Source: an uncultured Chitinophagaceae bacterium (GTDB taxonomy: Bacteria > Bacteroidota > Bacteroidia > Chitinophagales > Chitinophagaceae). Taken from it: a stretch of 64,000 nucleotides of DNA. The notes under the pieces were generated by a model, which was given only the letters and a program-made list of their open reading frames with translations, was not told the DNA's origin and searched no databases. Position numbers and translations under genes: made by a program. The stretch's first letter is position 1; the number at the start of each line of letters is the position of its first letter. The stretch lies in assembly GCA_963811285.1 (NCBI GenBank), contig CAWEQV010000014.1, positions 92,879 through 156,878 on the forward strand, given 5' to 3'. Below, one piece after another: positions 6,650-39,887 of the stretch.

Positions 6650-7921
6650 ATGCAAAATGGAAGAACCGTTGCCCTGCATACGTTAGGCTGCAAATTAAAT
6701 TATTCGGAAACTTCAGCAGTTGAAAGATTGCTGGAAGAAGATGGATTTGTAAAAAAAGAATTTACAGATAAGGCTGATGTATATGTGATCAACACATGTT
6801 CTGTTACTGAAAATGCAGATAAAGAATGCCGGCAATTAGTAAGGCGCGTTCAAAGAAAAGCGCCGGAAGCGATGGTGGTTATAATGGGCTGTTATGCGCA
6901 ATTAAAACCAAAGGAAATTGCGGAAATTCCGGGAGTAGATTTGGTTTTGGGTGCTGCCGAAAAATTTAATATTACCTCTCATTTAAAAGAACTCACTCAT
7001 GGCAATAGCGCCAAAATCTGCAGTTGTGACATTGAAGATGTGGAAGGTTTTCATTCTTCTTTTTCCATAAACGACAGGACAAGAACTTTTTTAAAAGTGC
7101 AGGACGGCTGCGATTATAACTGTTCCTTCTGTACGATTCCAATGGCCCGCGGAAAAAGCAGGAGCAATTCAATAGAAAATGTTTTATCTGAAATACAAAA
7201 AATTAAATCCGCCGGAGTAAAAGAAATTGTACTCACAGGAATTAATCTCGGCGATTTTGGTAAAGATGGAAGTGGAAATAAAACCGGAGACAATTTCTAT
7301 TCATTATTGAAAGCGATTGAAGAATTTGACGGAGTGGATCGTTATCGGATTTCGTCAATAGAACCGAATTTATTATCAGAAGAAATAATTCGTTTTGTTG
7401 CTGGAAGCAAAAAAATAATGCCCCATTTTCATATTCCTCTTCAAAGCGGAAGTAACAAAATCCTCAGAATGATGCGCCGGCGCTATAAAAGGGAATTATA
7501 TGGAGAAAAAGTCGGGCTGATAAAAAAATTAATTCCTGATTGTTGCATTGGCGTGGATGTGATTACAGGTTTCCCCGGCGAATCAGAAACTGACTTTAAA
7601 GAAACCGTTGACTTTTTGCTTTCGCTTGATATTTCTTACCTGCATGTGTTCACTTATTCTGAAAGGGCCAATACCCATGCGTTAACTATTGAACCGGCGG
7701 TTCCGATTCATACCCGTCATGAGCGCACAAAGATTCTTCGTTCGTTATCTTATAAAAAGATGCAGCAATTTCTTGCTTGTAATAGCGGCGAAACAAGAAA
7801 AGTTTTGTTTGAAAGTAAAAATAAAAACCGCATGATGGAAGGTTATACGGATAACTATATTAAAATAACCACACCTTACAAAGAAGAGTGGACCAATGAA
7901 ATAATAGACTGGAAAATTTAA
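6650..7921 (+). CDS. mtaB: tRNA t6A37 methylthiotransferase MtaB
   Basis: HTLGCKLNYSE, INTCSVT, radical-SAM QDGCDYNCSFC, HFHIPLQSGS; TAATTTTG -7 element just upstream of the ATG at 6650. Confidence 0.92.
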   Translation: MQNGRTVALHTLGCKLNYSETSAVERLLEEDGFVKKEFTDKADVYVINTCSVTENADKECRQLVRRVQRKAPEAMVVIMGCYAQLKPKEIAEIPGVDLVLGAAEKFNITSHLKELTHGNSAKICSCDIEDVEGFHSSFSINDRTRTFLKVQDGCDYNCSFCTIPMARGKSRSNSIENVLSEIQKIKSAGVKEIVLTGINLGDFGKDGSGNKTGDNFYSLLKAIEEFDGVDRYRISSIEPNLLSEEIIRFVAGSKKIMPHFHIPLQSGSNKILRMMRRRYKRELYGEKVGLIKKLIPDCCIGVDVITGFPGESETDFKETVDFLLSLDISYLHVFTYSERANTHALTIEPAVPIHTRHERTKILRSLSYKKMQQFLACNSGETRKVLFESKNKNRMMEGYTDNYIKITTPYKEEWTNEIIDWKI

Positions 7922-7986
7922 TTGGTTTGTTATTTGCTAACTATAATTTTTTTCAGAAATTTTAATTCACTTAGTAAAATTACAAA

Positions 7987-8109
7987 ATGAATAAATTGGT
8001 AAGGGCGCTAATAGCTGGTTGGGGCGCTAAAAAATTAGGAGGCGGCTGCCTCGGAACGATTGTGGTTTTCTTTATCATTTATATGTTATTGGGTCATGTA
8101 CATTGTTGA
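7987..8109 (+). CDS. Small 40-aa membrane protein (GGGCLGT motif)
   Basis: Manual translation MNKLVRALIAGWGAKKLGGGCLGTIVVFFIIYMLLGHVHC*; A-rich translation-initiation region upstream; terminator hairpin downstream. Confidence 0.65.
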   Translation: MNKLVRALIAGWGAKKLGGGCLGTIVVFFIIYMLLGHVHC

Positions 8110-8126
8110 GATCATGGCAAAAAATA

Positions 8127-8157
8127 ACGGGTTCTTACTCCATAGTAAAAAACCCGT
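8127..8157. terminator. Hairpin between convergent genes, probably a bidirectional intrinsic terminator
   Basis: acgggtt-c-ttact-ccat-agtaa-aa-aacccgt. Confidence 0.6.
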
Positions 8158-8185
8158 CTTACCAGTTTATAAAAAATACTGATCC

Positions 8186-8710
8186 TTAAGCGTGTTCAGC
8201 TTCCATGGCTTCTTCATTCACTGTTGATTCAGCCACTTGGGTGAGTTTATCATCTGCGTCTCTTTCTTCAGTTAATGTCTGCTCCAAAAGTTGAGCAATT
8301 TCATTCTTGCCCAAAGTTTTTGCAAATGCATGTAACGTGCCATAGGAAGCAATTTCATAATGTTCCACTTTTTGAGCAGCGGAAATAATTCCCGCATCTC
8401 TCACAACACCATCTTCGGTGTTATCCATTATTTCCTCAGCTTCTTTTATCAGCCCTTCCATCGCCTCGCATTTTTTTGCCCTCGCGGGTTTGCCCATCAT
8501 GTCAAAAATCTTTTCACACCTGTCCACATGCCCTTTGGTTACTTCCAGATGTCCCTGCAAACCCTTTATCAGATCCTGTGAAGTGGAGTTTTTGATCATT
8601 TTCGAAAGCGCTTTCGTCTCTGCTTTCTCTGCCCAATAAATGTCTCTTAGTTCATCTATGAATAAATCACGAAGTCCTTCTGCTGTTTTTGATTTACCGT
8701 TCGTTTTCAT
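8186..8710 (-). CDS. Ferritin-like DUF892 (YciE/YciF family) stress protein
   Basis: LRDIYWAEK, HLEVTKGHVDR, KKCEAMEGLIKE, AAQKVEHYEIASYGTL, TLTEERDAD motifs. Confidence 0.92.
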   Translation of the reverse strand: MKTNGKSKTAEGLRDLFIDELRDIYWAEKAETKALSKMIKNSTSQDLIKGLQGHLEVTKGHVDRCEKIFDMMGKPARAKKCEAMEGLIKEAEEIMDNTEDGVVRDAGIISAAQKVEHYEIASYGTLHAFAKTLGKNEIAQLLEQTLTEERDADDKLTQVAESTVNEEAMEAEHA

Positions 8711-8973
8711 GGTTAAAAGTTTAAAAGTTGATGAATAAATTCTGATTACAAATGATGGAAAAACATGCCAGAATTTGTAAGAGTATTGATTTTTTTATTC
8801 ATCCATATAAAATGCTATTGAACGATAAATGAATGGCTACCTTAAATCTTAAAAGAAAATTTTCAGACTTACGGTAGCTGACTGTCATCTTTCAAGCGCT
8901 ATTAAAAAATTCTACACTTTACAGTTGGGTTTGAGGATTTTGTTACTCAGGCGGAAAAAATACCAGATAATTT

Positions 8974-31507: not shown

Positions 31508-32357
31508 TTACTTAATAATTCTTGAAATTTTATTGGCGTTTTCCATCAGTTCTTTCAGGTATTCATAATTTTCCTTTTCAAGACAGCTTTTAAATTTTCG
31601 TAATTGCGAAATGTGTTCATTCAAAACATCTAAAACATTTTCCCTGTTCTGCATAAAAATCGGCGCCCACATAGAAGGATTACTTTTTGCCAGACGAACG
31701 GTGCTTTCAAAACCACCGCCTGCCAGTTCAAAAATCGCGTCTTCTTCTTTTTCTTTTTCCAAAACCGTATTTGCTAATGCAAAAGAAGTGATGTGGGAAA
31801 TATGACTTACATACGCGGCATGAATATCATGGTTTTCCGCATCCATATACGTAAGATGCATTCCCAATTCTTTGTAAATCTTTTCAACCGTTTTAACTGC
31901 TTCTTCATCACTCTTTTCTTTTTCACAAATGACACATGATCTGCCGCTGAAAGCTTCTCTCACGGCAGCTTCCGGGCCGCTGTATTCTGTTCCCCACATC
32001 GGATGCGTTGCTACAAACCTTTTTCTTTTCGGATGATTTTCCAAGTGCTTTACACAAGGCATATTTCGTAGAACCAGCGTCTGCAACGATTTGTTTGTCG
32101 GTAACCAAATCCATAATTTTTTCCATAACAGGAATGGTTACGTCAACAGGAATCGCGACATAAATGAAATCACTTTTTTTCACCGCTTCTTCCAGGGGCA
32201 ACGCTTCATCAATAATTCCAAGCTCTTTCGCTTTATCTAAACTTGCCTGTGTTCTGCTGACACCAATTATATTTTTTGCGAAGCCTTTTTCTTTTAAAGC
32301 GAGCGCAAAAGAGCCACTAATTAAACCAACACCTACTATCGTTACGTTTTCAAACAT
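31508..32357 (-). CDS. tyrA: Prephenate dehydrogenase; frameshift near 32045
   Basis: GVGLISGS Rossmann motif, DAGSTK, ATHPMWGTE, HDIHAAYVSHISH. Confidence 0.92.
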
Positions 32358-32365
32358 ATCATTTA

Positions 32366-33550
32366 TTAATTCTGCGTCTTTTTAATTCTGTCAATCGCTT
32401 CATCCAGTTTTTCTTCCGGCGTGCACAAACTAACGCGAACATAATTATTTCCGGCATTTCCAAAAATTCCGCCTGGTGTGATAAATACGTTTGCTTCTTC
32501 TAATACTTTATCACTCAATTCATATCCATCTTTATAATTTGCAGGAATAGAAGCCCAGACAAAAAGGCCAGCCTGGTTTTTATTGTAGGAACAATTTAAA
32601 AGATCAAGCAGATTAAATACTTTCTCACGTCTTTTTTTATAGACTGCATTTACAGAATCATACCAATCCTGGTCAAGTTCCAAAGCCGTTGCGGCAGCGA
32701 GTTGCAGCGGCAAAAACATTCCACTGTCCATATTGCTTTTGAAGCGCAGCACTTCTGCAATTCTTTCTTTTGCACCCGAAAGCATTCCCACGCGCCAGCC
32801 AGCCATGTTATGGCTTTTGCTGAACGAATTCAATTCAATTACAACTTCCATCGCTCCTTCTACACTTAACAAACTCATTGGATGATCATTGAGAATGAAG
32901 CTGTATGGGTTATCGTGAACAACTAATATTTGATGCTTTTTTGCAAAAGAAATTAGTTCCTTAAACATTTCGTTTGTGGGTAACTGTCCGGTTGGCATTT
33001 GCGGATAATTCACAAACATCAGTTTCACTTTCTGCAAATCCAGTTTTTCCAATTCATTAAAATCAGGACACCAGTTATTTTCTTCTTTAAGCGTGTAAGC
33101 ATAAACGTTAGCGCCTGCAATTGTCGCGGCACTTTTATAAGTCGGATAACCGGGATTCGGAATTAAAACCATATCACCGGGATTGATATACGTCATGCAA
33201 ATGTGCATGATACCTTCCTTGCTCCCAATCAAAGGCAAAATTTCTGTATCAGGATTGAGATCAACGTTATACCATTTTTTATACCATTTTGAAATTGCGT
33301 TTCTCAGGACAGGGCTTCCTTTATAGCTCTGATAACCATGTTGATTCGGTTTTTCAGCTTCTTCTGCCAATGTCTTAATCACATCCGGATGAGGCGGAAG
33401 ATCAGGGCTGCCGATTCCGAGGTTTATCACATTTTTCCCTTCCTTATTCATTTGATCAATTTGCCTCAGCTTGGTCGAAAAATAATATTCTTCAATACCT
33501 GAAAGGCGATCAGCTACTTTGCCCATTTTATTGTTCAGTGTATCGTTCAT
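32366..33550 (-). CDS. Class I/II PLP aminotransferase, probably the aromatic-branch transaminase
   Basis: GIGSPD, GSKEG, DNPY, SFSKSHNMAGWRVG. Confidence 0.9.
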   Translation of the reverse strand: MNDTLNNKMGKVADRLSGIEEYYFSTKLRQIDQMNKEGKNVINLGIGSPDLPPHPDVIKTLAEEAEKPNQHGYQSYKGSPVLRNAISKWYKKWYNVDLNPDTEILPLIGSKEGIMHICMTYINPGDMVLIPNPGYPTYKSAATIAGANVYAYTLKEENNWCPDFNELEKLDLQKVKLMFVNYPQMPTGQLPTNEMFKELISFAKKHQILVVHDNPYSFILNDHPMSLLSVEGAMEVVIELNSFSKSHNMAGWRVGMLSGAKERIAEVLRFKSNMDSGMFLPLQLAAATALELDQDWYDSVNAVYKKRREKVFNLLDLLNCSYNKNQAGLFVWASIPANYKDGYELSDKVLEEANVFITPGGIFGNAGNNYVRVSLCTPEEKLDEAIDRIKKTQN

Positions 33551-33569
33551 CGCATTTTTTATTTAAAAA

Positions 33570-34403
33570 TTAACCCGCATTTTTCCCGTTTTTATAAACA
33601 CCATATACTTTAACATTAGCGGTTAAAGGCGCTATACTTTTTAATACCTCATTCAGTTGTTCAAGATGAGTGAATTCACAATCCACATGAAAGGAATAGC
33701 GCCAGTCGCTGCCGGGAATCGGCATTGATTGAAGCTTACTTAAATTTACATCCGCTTCTGAAATTTTTGTCAGCACCTTCGCAAGGCTTCCTTTTGAATG
33801 ATCTGTCTGAAAGATCAAAGAAGCTTTATTGGCATCATTGATTTCTTTTACCGAAGTTTCGTTTTCCAAAACCCAAAAGCGTGTATAATTATTTTTTTGT
33901 GTGTGAATGTTTGGCGCTATAATTTCCAACCCGAAAAGTTCAGCAGCCAGGTCGCCTGCAATCGCGGCAATGTGTTTACTCCTGTGTTGGTGTACATGCT
34001 GAGCGCTAAGCGCAGTATCTTCCGTTTCAATTAACTTCCAATTGTACTTTTCTAAAAAATCAGAACATTGAAGCAATGCCATTGGATGAGAATGAACTTC
34101 GCGAATATCTTCAAGCGTAATGCCGGGGTTAACCATCAAATGCTGGTTTACCTGCAGGTAAATTTCTCCTACAATTTTCAATTTACTTTTTTGCAATAGA
34201 TTGTAATTGGGCAAAATGCTTCCGGCAATTGAATTTTCGATGGCCATAAGGCCACCATCGCTGCTGGTTTTGTCATCGGCAATCTTTATTACTTCACGGA
34301 AAGTGGAGCAACAAATCACTTCCACTTCGTTTCCAAAAAACTGGCGGGCAGCAGCCTGGTGAAAGCTCCCTTCAAAACCCTGTATGGCTATTTTCTTTTG
34401 CAT
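33570..34403 (-). CDS. pheA: Prephenate dehydratase with ACT domain
   Basis: AIENSIAG, SHPMALLQC, NYTRF, NLSKLQSMP. Confidence 0.94.
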   Translation of the reverse strand: MQKKIAIQGFEGSFHQAAARQFFGNEVEVICCSTFREVIKIADDKTSSDGGLMAIENSIAGSILPNYNLLQKSKLKIVGEIYLQVNQHLMVNPGITLEDIREVHSHPMALLQCSDFLEKYNWKLIETEDTALSAQHVHQHRSKHIAAIAGDLAAELFGLEIIAPNIHTQKNNYTRFWVLENETSVKEINDANKASLIFQTDHSKGSLAKVLTKISEADVNLSKLQSMPIPGSDWRYSFHVDCEFTHLEQLNEVLKSIAPLTANVKVYGVYKNGKNAG

Positions 34404-34438
34404 AAAACAAAAATCCCGGCGATTTGTGCCGGGATTTT
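34404..34438 (-). terminator. Attenuator terminator hairpin immediately before the pheA start codon
   Basis: Minus strand AAAATCCCGGC-ACAAATC-GCCGGGATTTT then TGTTTT-ATG. Confidence 0.85.
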
Positions 34439-34463
34439 CTATTGTTAATTTGTTATTTCCGTT

Positions 34464-34541
34464 TTAACAAGCCGATCCCGGACTATTTCTAAAATAGTAG
34501 CTAAAATAAAAGAAGCCGGTATTTGCTTTTCTGATTATCAT
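34464..34541 (-). CDS. Phe/Tyr-rich attenuator leader peptide (25 aa)
   Basis: MIIRKANTGFFYFSYYFRNSPGSAC*; 7 of 8 consecutive codons encode Phe or Tyr; lies between the promoter and the terminator. Confidence 0.85.
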   Translation of the reverse strand: MIIRKANTGFFYFSYYFRNSPGSAC

Positions 34542-34548
34542 TGCATCG

Positions 34549-34556
34549 CAAATGTA
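34549..34556 (-). promoter_or_regulatory. Bacteroidota sigma -7 element of the aromatic operon
   Basis: TACATTTG (TAnnTTTG) ends 7 nt before the leader ATG. Confidence 0.7.
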
Positions 34557-34749
34557 AGTGCTAAATTGAAATCAACAAATTAATTTTTTATTTTTTACCA
34601 AAAAATTTCAAAACAAATGACGCTTTTGGCGAAATTATTCTAATGTATTAAGAACAATTGCAAATACGGTGAAATAAAAATCGGAAGAATTTGTTGTTTT
34701 ACTAACTATTAAAATTTCACATCGAACCTTGGTGTTTCGTAGTCACAAC

Positions 34750-34790
34750 AAAAAACCTCCATGCACCGCTATTAACGGTGGCACAGAGGT
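34750..34790 (-). terminator. Intrinsic terminator after the rubrerythrin gene
   Basis: Minus strand ACCTC...GCCACCG-TTAATAG-CGGTGCA...GAGGT followed by a T run. Confidence 0.55.
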
Positions 34791-34837
34791 AAACACCAAA
34801 CCTTACAGTAAGTATGCCTTGTTTGCAGTTTTGTAGT

Positions 34838-35581
34838 TTATAGGGTTGTTATCTTTATGAACCTGTCTGATTTAGTCATTGAAATTCCGCAACGAGCCGG
34901 AGCTGTGGTTTGATAAGTGTTGCCACAGGTTGAACATACATAGTAAACCGACGGCAGATTATTCGCAGTATTATTCTGCAAAGCTGCCAGCGCTGTTTGG
35001 TACATCACCTGGTGCTTTTTTTCTGTTTTGTAAGCATAATTCAGGCTTATCATTGCCAGCTGATCACCGGCCACGTTAGCTACTTTGAGAAATTCAGGAT
35101 ACATGGTGGTTGCCTCATAAGTTTCTCCTTTAATGGCGTCTTCAAGATTTTCCTTAGTTGATAACACAGTGTATTCAGGTGTTATCGCCGGAACAGAAAC
35201 GCCTGATTCCTGTAAAACTGCTTTGTGATTATTTGCATGAACATTTTCTGCTGTGGAAGCTGCTTTAAAAAGCAAAGCGATTTGATGAAAGCCTTCCTTT
35301 TCTGCTTTTTGAGCGTAGGCTGCATATTTGGCACTCGCGGTTGTTTCACCTTTAAAGGCTGCCTGCAAATTCTCAATGGTTTTGGATTTTGCATCTGCAT
35401 TTGTCATGCTCACCGTCTTTGCGATGGGATTTGTTTCTTCGTTTTCCTGTTGATTAGCAATGGCAGTATTTATTGCTTTTGGTGATTTAAGTGAAGTGTC
35501 GGCATCATTGCTTTTGCATGAAACCATAAATAAGCTGCCTGTTGCTAACAATAGTGCCGGAATAATTAATGTCTTTTTCAT
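34838..35581 (-). CDS. Lipoprotein rubrerythrin-like di-iron protein with a variant rubredoxin-like C-terminus
   Basis: Lipobox LFMVSC; GETTASAKY, ENVHA, GETYEATTMY, EKKH di-iron motifs; C-terminal CSTC-x11-CGIS. Confidence 0.85.
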   Translation of the reverse strand: MKKTLIIPALLLATGSLFMVSCKSNDADTSLKSPKAINTAIANQQENEETNPIAKTVSMTNADAKSKTIENLQAAFKGETTASAKYAAYAQKAEKEGFHQIALLFKAASTAENVHANNHKAVLQESGVSVPAITPEYTVLSTKENLEDAIKGETYEATTMYPEFLKVANVAGDQLAMISLNYAYKTEKKHQVMYQTALAALQNNTANNLPSVYYVCSTCGNTYQTTAPARCGISMTKSDRFIKITTL

Positions 35582-35659
35582 TCTTATTTGTTTTTATTTT
35601 TTTGATAAATTGATATAGCAAAGGTGCCCCTGCCTTCATTCAGGGTTTCTTTGTACATG

Positions 35660-35676
35660 CTTAAGATCAGCTTAAG
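35660..35676. promoter_or_regulatory. OmpR/PmrA-type tandem box CTTAAG-N5-CTTAAG upstream of the rubrerythrin gene
   Basis: CTTAAGATCAGCTTAAG, overlapping the kinase stop codon; starts 34 nt from the CACCTTTG -7-like element (35619-35626). Confidence 0.75.
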
Positions 35677-37045
35677 ATTTTTCAGGAAATTGTAGCAGGA
35701 AGGTGGTAATACCATCGCCGCTTTTCACGGTAATAGCAATGCGCTGCAAATCGCATAATTGCTTTACAATCGCCAACCCCAAACCACTTCCGGGAATGTG
35801 GGAACTGCGTGAATTGTCTGTGCGGTAAAACCGGTTGAAGAGAAAAGGTATTTGTTCTGCGGCGATCGCCGGGCCTTCATTGGAGATAGAAAATATTTTC
35901 TTGCTTTCGTTCCAGTCACAGGTTATCTTACTATCGATTACACCATATTTAATGGCGTTGCTAATAAGGTTATCGGTCACGATTGACATCAGGAAATAAT
36001 CGGCATATACACAACTGCTTGGTGGGAAGGCAATATTTAATTGGATGCCTTTTTCAGTCATTTGCTTTTCCCATTTTTTTGCCGTTTCATTCACGAGCAG
36101 GCGAAGAGAAACGATTTCCTTTTTTTCCGACCCCGATTCCATGCGTGCCAGTTGCAGTAACTGTTCCAGTAAAAGATTCAACCTATCCGTTTGCGCGATC
36201 GCATCCCGGATTTTTTCCTCGTATTGTTCAGGTTCTCTCTTTTTTCTTAGTAAAATTTCCAGTGTCCCTCTTATGGCAGCAAGTGGCGTTCTTATTTCGT
36301 GCGACGCATCGGCAGTAAATTGTTTTTGTTGCTTAATACTGTTTTCTATGCGGTTAAGCAATTCATTGATCGTGGTGGCCAGTTGAAATATTTCATCTTC
36401 ATTTGCGGGTAAGGGTAACCGTGTGTTGATGTTGGAATCTGTTATGCCTGACGCTGTTCGTATCAGGTGTTGCACCGGAGCAATAGCTCTTGAGGCAGAA
36501 AGGTAGATAACAACGTACATCACCAGCAACACAATGGGAAATATAATACAAAGGGTAAGGAGCAAATTGTTTAAAACATAGTAAGATTCCTGCTGAGAGA
36601 TTCCAATGTTTAAATAGCCGATGATTTTTCCATGGTCGTTCTTAATAGGAAATTGCCCGATCCTTAATCTTTGGTCACCAATCTTCGTGTTGTAAAAATT
36701 TTGTTGTTTATTATTTGGTTTGTATAGAAAGTGGTTCGCCTGCAGGTTCGCGGATTTAAAAACGAGTTTTTCTTCACTGTCAACGATTTGAATAAAGGTT
36801 GGATTTACTTCTACTTTCCTGTGTTCAGACTCTTCCCACTCGGACATCTTATTAACGATAATACTGTCGTCATTCCAATCCAGCGAATTAATAATCTCCG
36901 TCTTCTCCTGGGTAATATCGCCATCGAGATGGCGGAAAGAACTGAATCGGGCAACGGCATAGATAACCGTGAACACAATAGCTGTGGTGATGGCGACTGC
37001 CAGCGTATTAAAAAGAGCGATACGTTTTTTAAAACTAAGTTTCAT
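35672..37045 (-). CDS. Membrane sensor histidine kinase (HAMP-HisKA-HATPase)
   Basis: Two TM helices, FTADASHEIRTPL, NLISNAIKY, RFYR, GSGLGL. Confidence 0.94.
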   Translation of the reverse strand: MKLSFKKRIALFNTLAVAITTAIVFTVIYAVARFSSFRHLDGDITQEKTEIINSLDWNDDSIIVNKMSEWEESEHRKVEVNPTFIQIVDSEEKLVFKSANLQANHFLYKPNNKQQNFYNTKIGDQRLRIGQFPIKNDHGKIIGYLNIGISQQESYYVLNNLLLTLCIIFPIVLLVMYVVIYLSASRAIAPVQHLIRTASGITDSNINTRLPLPANEDEIFQLATTINELLNRIENSIKQQKQFTADASHEIRTPLAAIRGTLEILLRKKREPEQYEEKIRDAIAQTDRLNLLLEQLLQLARMESGSEKKEIVSLRLLVNETAKKWEKQMTEKGIQLNIAFPPSSCVYADYFLMSIVTDNLISNAIKYGVIDSKITCDWNESKKIFSISNEGPAIAAEQIPFLFNRFYRTDNSRSSHIPGSGLGLAIVKQLCDLQRIAITVKSGDGITTFLLQFPEKS

Positions 37046-37720
37046 TAATTGTCATTTACCCGGTAACCTACTCCCCGTATGGTTTGAACGAAAGATTCCT
37101 TGCCGGGACTGTCCAGTTTTTTGCGGAGAGAATTAATAAAAACATCGATTACAGAAGTGTCTTTATCAAAATGAATATCCCAGATTTTTTCGATGATACG
37201 GGTGCGCCTGCATACTTTACCCTTATTACGTAAAAGGTATTCGAGTAAGGCAAATTCTTTTTGAGTCAGTTCTACAGGCAGTCCTTCTTTGGTGACCTGG
37301 TGTGCTTCCGTATCGAGACTAATTTCATCCTTCTCAAAGATATTTTGTGCTCCCTCTTTGTTGCGCAGCAGCACCCTGATACGAGCCAGCAATTCTTCGA
37401 AAGCGAAGGGTTTTTTCAGGTAATCGTTCGCACCGGATTCCAAGTGCGAAAACAGTATCATCCACTGTATCTTTTGCAGTTAAAAATATAATCGGTACTG
37501 TTTTATTTTCCTTGCGGATACTTCTGCATATTTCAATGCCACTGATCCCGGGTAACATCCAGTCGAGTAAATAAAGATCATATTCATCGATATAGTCAAG
37601 CGCCATTTCCAAAGCCTGCCGGCCGTTACCGGCCACATCTACTGCAAATCCTTCCTCTTCAAGTCCTTCCTTTATGAAGCCCGCAATAGCTGATTCATCC
37701 TCTGCTATTAAAATTCTCAT
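37045..37720 (-). CDS. OmpR-family response regulator; frameshift near 37450
   Basis: ILIAEDE, LLDWMLPG, FLTAK, GANDYLKKPF, winged helix ELTQKEFALLEYL...VIDVFINSLRKKL...TIRGVGY. Confidence 0.92.
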
Positions 37721-37756
37721 TGTGTTAAATTAGCACAAAAGACGAAGATAATCCGT

Positions 37757-38236
37757 TTATTTTTCTTCCGTGCCTGTGCTGCTATTTGAGAAATCCGGCA
37801 ATGCCAGTTGAACACCCGCGCCGTGTTTGTACACCAACTGTCCTCCTAAATACCCGGTACGTGCAATGCCGCCAATTACAGCAGCAAAAAGAAGAACACT
37901 GACAATTTTTACCCAACGTTGCCTGTATTTAAAAATAAAGATGGTCAGATACAATACGGCAGTGATGATAGTAAGCCACAGGGTAATTGTTGCAGCTTGT
38001 TCGTGGAGTTCCATTACGTCTTTCAGCGGGCCTTCTTCAATGCCTTCACCTGCGGCATTGCCGCTGAGATAGGAGGCTATGGTGCCCAACGAACCTAAAA
38101 TAAGGAGGTAAAATCCGCCTCTTTTGAAGAATTCCTTTTTTGAAAATAATGAAATCACTTCTGAAAGAAACCCTACAATGAGGAGGGCAATCGGGAAGTG
38201 AATAAACATAGCGTGGAGATGGGTTGCAGTAAACAT
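37757..38236 (-). CDS. DUF2231-family membrane protein
   Basis: HLHAMFIHFPIALL, MELHEQAA, GYLGGQLVYKHGAGV; about 4 TM helices. Confidence 0.85.
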   Translation of the reverse strand: MFTATHLHAMFIHFPIALLIVGFLSEVISLFSKKEFFKRGGFYLLILGSLGTIASYLSGNAAGEGIEEGPLKDVMELHEQAATITLWLTIITAVLYLTIFIFKYRQRWVKIVSVLLFAAVIGGIARTGYLGGQLVYKHGAGVQLALPDFSNSSTGTEEK

Positions 38237-38291
38237 GATTTTTTTTTCATCAAAGGTGAGATGGTAAGAGTTTAAAACAGGTTAGTGCATT

Positions 38292-38308
38292 CTTAAGATC
38301 AGCTTAAG
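38292..38308. promoter_or_regulatory. Second identical CTTAAGATCAGCTTAAG box upstream of the DUF2231 gene
   Basis: 17/17 identical to 35660-35676 and again 34 nt from a CACCTTTG element (38251-38258). Confidence 0.75.
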
Positions 38309-38674
38309 AAATCGAATTAAAGTCTTTCTTCTTTGCAGTTTTCTTATTTGTCACTTTACCTTAACAGGAAATTGTTTGCAACTGCTGCAAAGAAGGACTG
38401 GAAGAAACAAAATAAAAATCTGAAGAATTTATTAGTTTACTGAAATAGTTATGATTCCGGAAGGCTTGCTAAAAAACAATTACCGCGGGCGCCAATTAAA
38501 TAGACTATCTTTAAATGCTTTCAGATCCCCAGGGTAAGTTCCTTCTTTTATTTCTCTGATTACAAACCGCCTTTATCTCTGCTGTTTAGCAATTGCAAAA
38601 ATCCGTACGTATGCTTAATGTGAGAGTATGACTTGAATGATTTTATTAGTAATATAATTTATAATACAAACCCT

Positions 38675-39887
38675 ATGTCAACAACTATCGTTACAACAAA
38701 AATTCTTTTTCTAAGTACCTATCCTCCAAAAAAATGTGGTATTGCCAGCTTTACCAATGACCTGATAAATGCAATCAACCAGGAAATTTCAGGAGAGACA
38801 GCGATAAGCATTTGTGCGTTGGAAAAAAAACTCAACAGGGAACTGTATGAAGATAAAGTATGCTTATTTATGGACAGTTTCCAATTGATTCCTGCATGGA
38901 AACTGCCATGCAATCAACAACGATCCGCTGATAAAACTCATTTGCATTGAGCATGAATTTGGCTTATATGGCGGAGAATCGGGAGATTACCTGCTCGGGT
39001 TTTTATCATTAATCGAAAAGCCGTTTATCGTCCGTTTCCACACCGTAATTCCTCCACCTACAGCGAAAATGTTGAGAGTAGTACAATCAATCGCATTGCT
39101 TGCCGATAAGCTGATAGTTATGACGGAAAATTCAGCCAGTATATTGAAAGAAGATTATAAACTGGATGCTGATAAACTTAGGATAATTCCCCATGGAACT
39201 CATGCATTCAGCACGATTAATGTGAATCAATTAAAATCCAAATACCATCTTGAAAACAGAAAGGTGCTTACGACTTTCGGTTTATTAAGCCCAAATAAAG
39301 GCATTGAGAAAGGTATTTTGGCAATGAAGGAAATAAGCAAAACCCTGCCTGATTCTATCTATCTCGTGATAGGACAAACGCATCCTAATTTGATAGAAAA
39401 AGAGGGAGAAAGTTATAGGGATTATCTGAAACAATTGATTGCCGATAACGGGTTGCAGGAAAACGTACAATTAATTAATGAATACGTGCCAACGCACAAC
39501 CTGATGGAATACCTGGCCTTAACCGATGTTTACCTTTTCACTTCCAAAGACCCTCACCAGGCGGTGAGCGGTACTTTTCTTTATGCAATGGGTTCCGGTT
39601 GTCCTATTATTTCTAACTCATTTGTATTAGCCAAGGAAATGCTGGACGATAGCAGTGGTGTGATTCTCAAAACAAATAGTCCCGACGAACTTGCTGAAAA
39701 TGCAATAAATATTTTACAAAATCACGGATTGCAACAGGAAATGAGTGCCAATGCACGGGCCAAAACAAGAAATACTACCTGGGAGAAGGTAGGTAAGAAA
39801 CATGTACAATTATTCAGTAGCATTTTAGGAATGAATTTGTCACCAATGGATGCGTCACCCCAATACGATATTCAAAACAGCCTTTAA
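38675..39887 (+). CDS. GT4-family glycosyltransferase; frameshift near 38890
   Basis: STYPPKKCGIASFT, HEFGLYGG, TFGLLSPNKGIE, VSGTFLYAMG. Confidence 0.85.

Follow-up and report, generated by a model that had tools for sequence, protein, structure and literature searches.

A conserved four-gene cassette associating a two-component system with an exported rubrerythrin and a DUF2231 membrane protein in Bacteroidota

The locus described here lies in a stretch of 64,000 nucleotides, hereafter referred to as the window, originating from an uncultured Chitinophagaceae bacterium (assembly GCA_963811285.1, contig CAWEQV010000014.1, positions 92,879 to 156,878 of the forward strand). Between positions 34,838 and 38,308 of the window, four genes encode a DUF2231 membrane protein, a response regulator, a sensor histidine kinase and a rubrerythrin, all located on the minus strand; the original prediction made for this region had already described them as co-oriented. 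The coordinates of the genes and of the associated regulatory features are listed in Table 1.

Table 1. Genes and regulatory features of the cassette, in window coordinates
Feature	Position	Strand	Remarks
Operator of the DUF2231-regulator-kinase operon	38270..38308	-	box CTTAAGCTGATCTTAAG at 38308..38292
Half-sites following the DUF2231 box		-	degenerate, about 11-bp phase: CTAAC, then TAAAC
-7 element CACCTTTG of the DUF2231 gene	38251..38258	-	ATG 14 nt downstream
DUF2231 protein, 159 aa, PF09990	37757..38236	-	4 transmembrane (TM) helices; Pfam 67.8 bits vs cutoff 26.4
Response regulator, OmpR/PhoB family	37045..37720	-	REC and winged helix domains (Pfam), as expected for the type
Sensor histidine kinase, 457 aa	35672..37045	-	HAMP-HisKA-HATPase_c, two TM segments, as expected for the type
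Operator of the rubrerythrin promoter	35638..35676	-	box at 35676..35660, overlapping the kinase stop codon
Half-sites following the rubrerythrin box		-	about 11-bp phase: ACAAAG, GAATG
-7 element CACCTTTG of the rubrerythrin gene	35619..35626	-	ATG 37 nt downstream
Rubrerythrin lipoprotein, 247 aa, PF02915	34838..35581	-	Pfam 83.5 bits vs cutoff 22.8
Bidirectional hairpin terminator	34409..34439	.	strong, 12 pairs; terminates the rubrerythrin transcript about 400 nt past the stop codon

Relatives of the cassette were gathered from contigs representing one genome per species, which yielded 355 loci, the best 80 of which were compared in detail. The rubrerythrin itself has 2,817 relatives in the database. 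The best 80 loci all belong to Bacteroidota and are carried by Chitinophagaceae, Sphingobacteriales, Saprospiraceae, Flavobacteriales, Bacteroidales/Prolixibacteraceae and Cytophagales, covering six classes (Chitinophagia, Sphingobacteriia, Saprospiria, Flavobacteriia, Bacteroidia and Cytophagia). When these loci were compared using tblastn, the order DUF2231, REC, winged helix, kinase and rubrerythrin was found on a single strand in each locus displaying sufficient upstream DNA. The co-occurrence of DUF2231 and the two-component system with the extracytoplasmic rubrerythrin, which had been proposed as a check of the prediction, is therefore observed as a constant synteny. Clustering of the flanking open reading frames (ORFs) retained these four genes only as the core (82, 79, 76 and 79 loci), and the synteny among close relatives is confined to positions 38357..34740, the flanks being variable. 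A scan of positions 33500-39500 against Rfam returned no match, no RNA run was found for a Chitinophaga locus, and distant relatives of the window were found in two soil DNA runs only. A literature search returned no description of an exported rubrerythrin, of the four-gene cassette or of any DUF2231 function, the name 'DUF2231' appearing in one unrelated database paper only. The cassette and the exported form of rubrerythrin are undescribed in the searched library; the component families are already known, as is the general logic, which resembles that of HprSR-MsrPQ and PmrAB. The cassette is probably an envelope-stress regulon across Bacteroidota.

The promoters can be briefly described as follows. 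The 17-mer CTTAAGATCAGCTTAAG is present in exactly two copies in the 64 kb, at 35660-35676 and 38292-38308, preceding the rubrerythrin gene and the DUF2231 gene, respectively. No further copy was found in the window, even when up to 3 mismatches were allowed (0.11 expected), and none of 100 shuffles reached the observed count. Read on the coding strand, both copies correspond to CTTAAGCTGATCTTAAG, followed by 33 nt and then by CACCTTTG. The original prediction had reported an identical box before both effector genes, located 34 nt from an identical -7 element, and had called for a scan for other boxes. The exact 17-mer is indeed found at both sites, the 34 nt are the same 33 nt counted inclusively, and the box is confined to these two promoters in the window. 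The PmrA-type repeat claimed at the same time is apparent as well: two YTTAAK hexamers are separated by 5 bp and the sequence reads CTTAAG-N5-CTTAAG, in the same format as the Salmonella PmrA box CTTAAG-N5-xTTAAT (PMC3973317).

In order to extend this comparison to the relatives, promoters were aligned using the anchor pattern [CTA]TT[AT]AG-N5-[CT]TT[AT]AG. The TTTG of the -7 element is located exactly 37 nt past the box (33 nt when counted to the 8-mer) in 80/80 rubrerythrin promoters and in 71/76 DUF2231 promoters. The consensus is TcTTaAGCcaATcTTAAGaat...caAAGgaa...t.AA...gcA.cTTTG for the former (80 loci) and tTcTTAAGC.AATcTTAAGAAt...cTAA...taAAt for the latter (76 loci), with a -7 region conserved as ..cAtcTTTG. 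Third and fourth half-sites, weaker than the first two, are conserved as well with a phase of about 11 bp, and extend into the expected -33 position. The consensus promoter of Bacteroidota is composed of a -7 element TAnnTTTG and a -33 element TTG. This -33 TTG is missing from both promoters of the cassette, which are consequently presumed to be activator-dependent. Transcription is predicted to start 6-8 nt past the TTTG, at about 38244 and 35612. A sigma-70 promoter scan produced no signal above shuffles, as expected for Bacteroidota. The operator can be generalised as YTTWAG-N5-YTTAAG, present before both genes in about 80 genomes of the six classes. Other matches in the 955 kb of collected loci are nearly all reverse-strand readings of the palindromic hexamers, in addition to about 5 weak stray matches. 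The sole strong extra box is a perfect CTTAAGCTAATCTTAAG, displaying the same TTTG spacing, at position 2127 of a Lutibacter locus (L055), directly upstream of a stand-alone VIT1-family gene. By its conservation, the box is a predicted operator common to these genomes, and the original regulatory idea, in which it serves activator-dependent promoters, is well supported in silico and can be held with high confidence.

The presumed activator is encoded by a gene which is broken into two ORFs in the window (37720..37334 and 37461..37045), owing to one extra base within CACTTGGAA at 37438-37446. Orthologous regulators are intact proteins of 224 aa and their frame is unbroken in 76 orthologs. At the site of the split, the window reads GCACTTGGAATCC, its closest relative L004 (96-99% identical) GCACTTGAATCC and the related locus L005 GCATTGGAATCC; two soil-metagenome contigs are each one base shorter, at 37440 or 37444. 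Over the 9.5 kb that could be aligned to L004, two coding indels were detected, each adding a single base to the window sequence and both falling in the 9-mer CACTTGGAA, at 37438-37446 in the regulator and at 32039-32047 in the prephenate dehydrogenase gene, which is itself split into ORFs 31923..32357 and 31508..32086. Apart from these two sites, the window contains no exact copy of CACTTGGAA (minus strand). The recurrence at one motif, in one case within a biosynthetic gene, favors a systematic error of consensus or base calling over two pseudogenes. A genuine regulator pseudogene was considered and rejected, an assembly artefact being more likely in view of L004, the soil contigs and the repeated 9-mer. 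The regulator is accordingly considered likely to be functional in the organism. A GT4-type glycosyltransferase gene (window 38633-39887) is also split, into ORFs 38633..38950 and 39069..39887 with a change of frame near 38888; this third broken gene within 8 kb agrees with an assembly prone to errors.

The regulator shares 44% identity with HprR of E. coli, and among NCBIfam models it matches those of the CusR/HprR group best, at 230.4 bits vs a cutoff of 279.2 and therefore below threshold. The kinase likewise reaches 205.8 bits vs the heavy-metal-sensor cutoff of 292.55, so that the heavy-metal sensor subfamily (TIGR01386/TIGR01387; CusRS, HprRS) scores best for the system without including it. 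HprSR governs a periplasmic redox enzyme and a membrane flavocytochrome (10.1101/2021.09.09.459708, PMC9302797). Such a likeness favors an alternative, the original prediction in its strict form, in which the trigger would be an oxidant and DUF2231 would act as a quinol-linked relay, using haem b or a redox metal, to the rubredoxin-like centre of a periplasmic rubrerythrin peroxidase, in analogy with HprSR-MsrPQ. This alternative is regarded as rather doubtful, and the sensor domain is the first element speaking against it. The periplasmic part of the kinase, about 130 aa between the two TM segments, displays two motifs conserved phylum-wide, HLDxDIxxEKEE and EWEEAEHxxVEVNPTF, and the invariant residues D12, E18, E21, E40, E43, E45 and H46 (domain numbering). 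It contains many invariant acidic residues and two His and is devoid of Cys and Met, a composition which agrees with a cation site more than with an oxidant sensor. The profile of the domain identified no relative among the PDB sequences. With these residues, the domain looks like a hard-cation site, and the signal is most likely a metal cation of this hard type, foremost iron.

The general view of rubrerythrins is that of cytoplasmic peroxidases which are found in anaerobes and fed by NAD(P)H/rubredoxin; they also show ferroxidase activity in vitro. The cassette proteins depart from the cytoplasmic location of the classical members, as all of them possess a signal peptide at the N-terminus. 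In the window protein it ends in a lipobox (...LFMVSC22) and is followed by an Asn/Glu/Lys-rich linker. The original prediction of an extracytoplasmic lipoprotein agrees with this sequence, and the extracytoplasmic nature extends to every member, as indicated by the signal peptide. The lipobox Ser/Ala-Cys is found in 70/82 members (Ser-Cys being invariant in the 20/20 members aligned), and in 11 members, mostly from Prolixibacteraceae, the Cys is replaced by Phe, resulting in an ordinary signal peptide. The conserved trait predicted from these signals is export, not lipidation. As the signal lacks a twin-arginine motif, the protein would cross the membrane unfolded and gain its iron outside the cytoplasm. 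In seven loci (L058 5653-5898; L069 5679-5918; also L034, L038, L063, L079 and L083), a short ORF encoding a lipoprotein of about 80 aa, whose tail is rich in Lys/Glu/Asn, is located between the rubrerythrin promoter and its gene, and resembles the signal peptide and linker of the rubrerythrin deprived of the enzyme domain.

The enzyme domain itself is a four-helix di-iron domain whose ligands E79, E112, H115, E153, E156, E187 and H190 follow the pattern of the rubrerythrin fold (E, ExxH, ExxE, ExxH) and are invariant in 20/20 aligned members. Residues 68-242 match the rubrerythrin of P. furiosus (1nnq) over its full length (E 6e-24). A conserved insertion of 13 residues is found between helices B and C, and the equivalog cutoffs of rubrerythrin and nigerythrin are far from reached (99.5 vs 200 for NF045767; 105 vs 340). 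The C-terminal rubredoxin-like knuckle reads CxxC...CGIS in 78/82 members, corresponding to three Cys plus one Ser, and CMTG in 4/82. The fourth Cys of the Fe(Cys)4 pattern CxxC...CxxC is consequently missing in 82/82, and this loss at the electron-entry site is a second element against a relay of electrons through haem. The absent Cys, the split regulator gene and the association with VIT1/MbfA reported below were not part of the original prediction.

The DUF2231 protein displays the four TM helices and the HPxxVHFPIAL and HE motifs of its family, and was modelled by AlphaFold2 (AF2) as a four-helix membrane bundle with a predicted local distance difference test (pLDDT) of 78.6. Positive residues (Lys+Arg) number 2.3-2.6 in loops 1 and 3, loop 2 contains about 5 Asp+Glu and the N-terminus none; under the positive-inside rule, these charges predict an N-out/C-out topology. 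Among 108 diverse DUF2231 members, more than 93% retain H8, H13, P15, H78, G131 and G132, E79 is near-universal as well, and the cassette proteins additionally conserve H6, H138 and an acidic GEGxEEG loop (GEGIEEG in the window). All conserved His residues and the acidic loop map to the predicted periplasmic face, where this one-sided His3/Glu cluster is compatible with either one haem or a metal site without haem. The near-universal H8, H13 and H78 are also in favor of the oxidant-triggered relay introduced above, as is a weak Foldseek resemblance to the haem domain of STEAP4 (TMq 0.61, E 1.2). However, with all conserved His on one face, one protein on its own cannot accommodate a membrane-spanning pair of haems, and hhalign assigned probabilities below 1% to E. 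coli CybB (0.7%) and to MsrQ (0.2%). Foldseek searches against the PDB returned no significant match (best E 0.55), and the profile found nothing below E 1.4 among the PDB sequences. Neither a sequence or fold relation to cytochromes b nor His pairs on both leaflets were thus detected.

The DUF2231 family comprises more than 5,800 representative clusters, and a wider homolog search using an alignment of both paralogs retrieved close orthologs only. Longer DUF2231 proteins, of about 350 aa, form a recurrent class (P0387, P0402, P0407, P0432, P0433, P0442, P0443 and P0446) carrying a C-terminal domain of about 200 aa without Pfam match, which displays the conserved motifs LVHH...FDYF...THxRGYLxD...VVHGHG.

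The association of DUF2231 with the rubrerythrin, which had been originally proposed, is supported by three lines of evidence: the synteny of the cassette, a second paralog and a natural fusion. The conserved His of DUF2231, all on the predicted periplasmic face, link the two proteins as well. The second DUF2231 paralog follows the rubrerythrin gene by 10-25 nt in 39 loci; it is divergent (about 28% identity) and retains the same invariant His. The fusion protein P0337 contains DUF2231 at residues 7-143 and a rubrerythrin with a complete Cys4 knuckle at 161-288. It was found on 11 metagenome contigs in a Bacteroidota-like context (locus L084, 6001-7017), its gene lying 20 nt downstream of a Peptidase_S46 gene, in a neighbourhood devoid of two-component systems. 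The predicted C-out topology of DUF2231 would place the fused rubrerythrin in the periplasm. From these arrangements, DUF2231 is taken to be a genuine rubrerythrin partner. They bear on two alternatives. The full Cys4 knuckle retained beside DUF2231 in the fusion is a further point in favor of electron transfer through a DUF2231 haem. Alternatively, DUF2231 could mainly be a metal-binding membrane co-sensor for the kinase, leaving the rubrerythrin as the sole effector. This agrees with the position of DUF2231, which is the first gene of the autoregulated operon at every locus and is separated from the rubrerythrin by the two signalling genes, and with the nature of its conserved residues, a His/Glu cluster exposed to the periplasm together with an ExxE-like loop. 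Such a role is nevertheless improbable, given the second paralog located right after the rubrerythrin in so many loci, the covalent fusion occurring away from any two-component system, and the wide distribution of DUF2231 proteins apart from kinases.

The genes recruited next to the cassette are informative with respect to its function. A VIT1 or erythrin-VIT1 (MbfA-like) gene is present within 2.5 kb in 38/82 loci, and an MbfA-like protein of 369 aa, rubrerythrin-like and VIT1, follows the cassette in about 33 loci. Its gene directly follows the rubrerythrin in close relatives of the window (L005 6902-7990; L001, L006, L007 and L008), the L001 gene being called in three pieces. In the window and in L004, where the VIT1 gene was lost or never acquired, the same position is occupied by a non-coding spacer of about 400-430 nt (34404-34837 in the window), at the end of which the hairpin of Table 1 is located. 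MbfA exports iron, and cells deprived of it become sensitive to both iron and H2O2 (PMC4902296). The presence of VIT1/MbfA exporters in the cassettes, once behind a box of their own, points to iron/peroxide stress, and the separate box of the L055 VIT1 gene stands against a system devoted to an oxidant-driven haem relay. The latter receives some support from cassettes including cytochrome c genes: in L061, L063, L037 and L031, loci from some Flavobacteriia and from unclassified Bacteroidota, the downstream genes encode a His-rich membrane protein of 190 aa without Pfam match and a cytochrome c containing ten CxxCH motifs (in L061 at 7330-8813, after the rubrerythrin and the second DUF2231). 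In the Lutibacter locus, a Dps gene and a divergent LysR/OxyR-like regulator are located directly downstream of the cassette (L055 7088-8608).

An involvement in iron acquisition was also considered. The exported di-iron protein would then oxidise Fe2+ for uptake, in the manner of EfeUOB or Fet3-Ftr1, with DUF2231 as permease or reductase. The ExxE-type acidic loop and the His cluster of DUF2231, as well as the ferroxidase activity of rubrerythrins, would be compatible with such a process. The recruited genes, however, are exporters (VIT1/MbfA) rather than importers, a 159-aa protein with 4 TM helices is small for a permease, and TonB, Feo and siderophore genes were not found in the flanks. 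This explanation is very improbable.

The model which combines most of these data is an iron-sensing regulon where an exported rubrerythrin and DUF2231 would protect the envelope from iron/peroxide damage, a proposal to which moderate confidence is given. The kinase would read a periplasmic signal, iron possibly together with an oxidant, through its acidic His-containing sensor domain. The phosphorylated regulator would then bind the tandem half-sites phased by 11 bp, two strong YTTAAG and two weaker ones, which replace the -33 element. It would activate its own DUF2231-regulator-kinase operon, resulting in positive autoregulation, as well as the rubrerythrin gene and the genes that follow it, whether a second DUF2231, an MbfA/VIT1 exporter or cytochromes c. 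The rubrerythrin would be exported by Sec and lipid-anchored at the periplasmic face, where its di-iron centre could remove peroxide and/or oxidise Fe2+. It would work physically with the 4-TM DUF2231 protein, which would present its His/Glu cluster to the periplasm and either feed electrons or hand over metal. The net effect would be to stop Fenton chemistry in the envelope during iron excess or export.

A more specific version of this model is put forward tentatively. DUF2231 may be a novel small membrane protein handling redox equivalents or metals, which would hold a cofactor, either one haem or a non-haem metal, at its periplasmic His3/Glu site and dock the exported di-iron rubrerythrin. 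The pair could possibly form a periplasmic peroxide/Fe2+ oxidoreductase independent of c-type cytochromes, with the iron-sensing kinase as its switch. Where MbfA/VIT1 is co-regulated, a coupling to iron export, by analogy with ferroportin/hephaestin, is conceivable to the same limited extent.

Several observations weigh against the iron-sensing envelope regulon. The AF2 model of the fusion shows no confident interface between its domains, with a predicted template modelling score (pTM) of 0.59 for domains modelled at pLDDT 88.5. DUF2231 bears no detectable relation to known cytochromes b, and four distant DUF2231 genes sit in unrelated and heterogeneous contexts. In the assembled window, the regulator gene is disrupted by a frameshift. 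No VIT1 gene is present in the window or in its closest relative L004, which makes iron export an accessory rather than a core function. Finally, many carriers are anaerobes (Bacteroidales, Prolixibacteraceae) with the four core genes only, so that a defence against peroxide/O2 fits equally well as a response to iron.

An exported rubrerythrin that is conserved, regulated and paired with a membrane protein would provide this class of enzymes with a new compartment and with a new route of electron or metal supply, and would give a first functional handle on the DUF2231 family. The strong conservation of the operator makes the regulon predictable in any Bacteroidota genome, be it of gut, oral or environmental origin, and iron/oxidant sensing in Bacteroidota thereby becomes directly testable in cultured strains. 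Cultured carriers of the cassette include Chitinophaga sp. LS1, Arcticibacter eurypsychrophilus, Kaistella gelatinilytica and Gaetbulibacter sp. M235.

Four known systems invite comparison. The logic of the module is shared by HprSR (YedVW)-MsrPQ of E. coli, where a CusRS-like two-component system is likewise combined with a periplasmic redox enzyme and a small membrane partner. The HprSR kinase, however, has an unrelated sensor domain, its alignment being limited to the transmitter half (27%), the enzyme is a molybdoenzyme instead of a di-iron rubrerythrin, and MsrQ is unrelated to DUF2231, as seen from the hhalign probability given above. PmrA/PmrB (BasRS) of Salmonella, Klebsiella and E. 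coli also employs an OmpR-family regulator and two hexamers 5 bp apart. The sensing of periplasmic Fe3+ by PmrB relies on acidic ExxE motifs, to which the invariant E-x-x-E-x-E-H patch of the cassette kinase can be likened. The two systems are not orthologous (168 bits vs a cutoff of 330 for the regulator, 125 vs 314 for the kinase), the recognition helix of PmrA differs from that of the cassette regulator, and PmrA targets lipopolysaccharide-modifying enzymes where a rubrerythrin is found here. Unlike the PmrA box, the operator of the cassette consists of four phased half-sites taking the place of the Bacteroidota -33 element.

MbfA of Bradyrhizobium and Agrobacterium is regulated by Irr in rhizobia and not by a two-component system. 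It is absent from the window and accessory elsewhere, and the phenotype of mbfA mutants (PMC4902296) fits the role proposed here. The cytoplasmic rubrerythrins and nigerythrins (1nnq; 1ryt and 1yuz of D. vulgaris) share the two-domain build and the di-iron ligands of the cassette protein, which differs from them in being exported, in its insertion of 13 residues and in lacking the fourth rubredoxin Cys.

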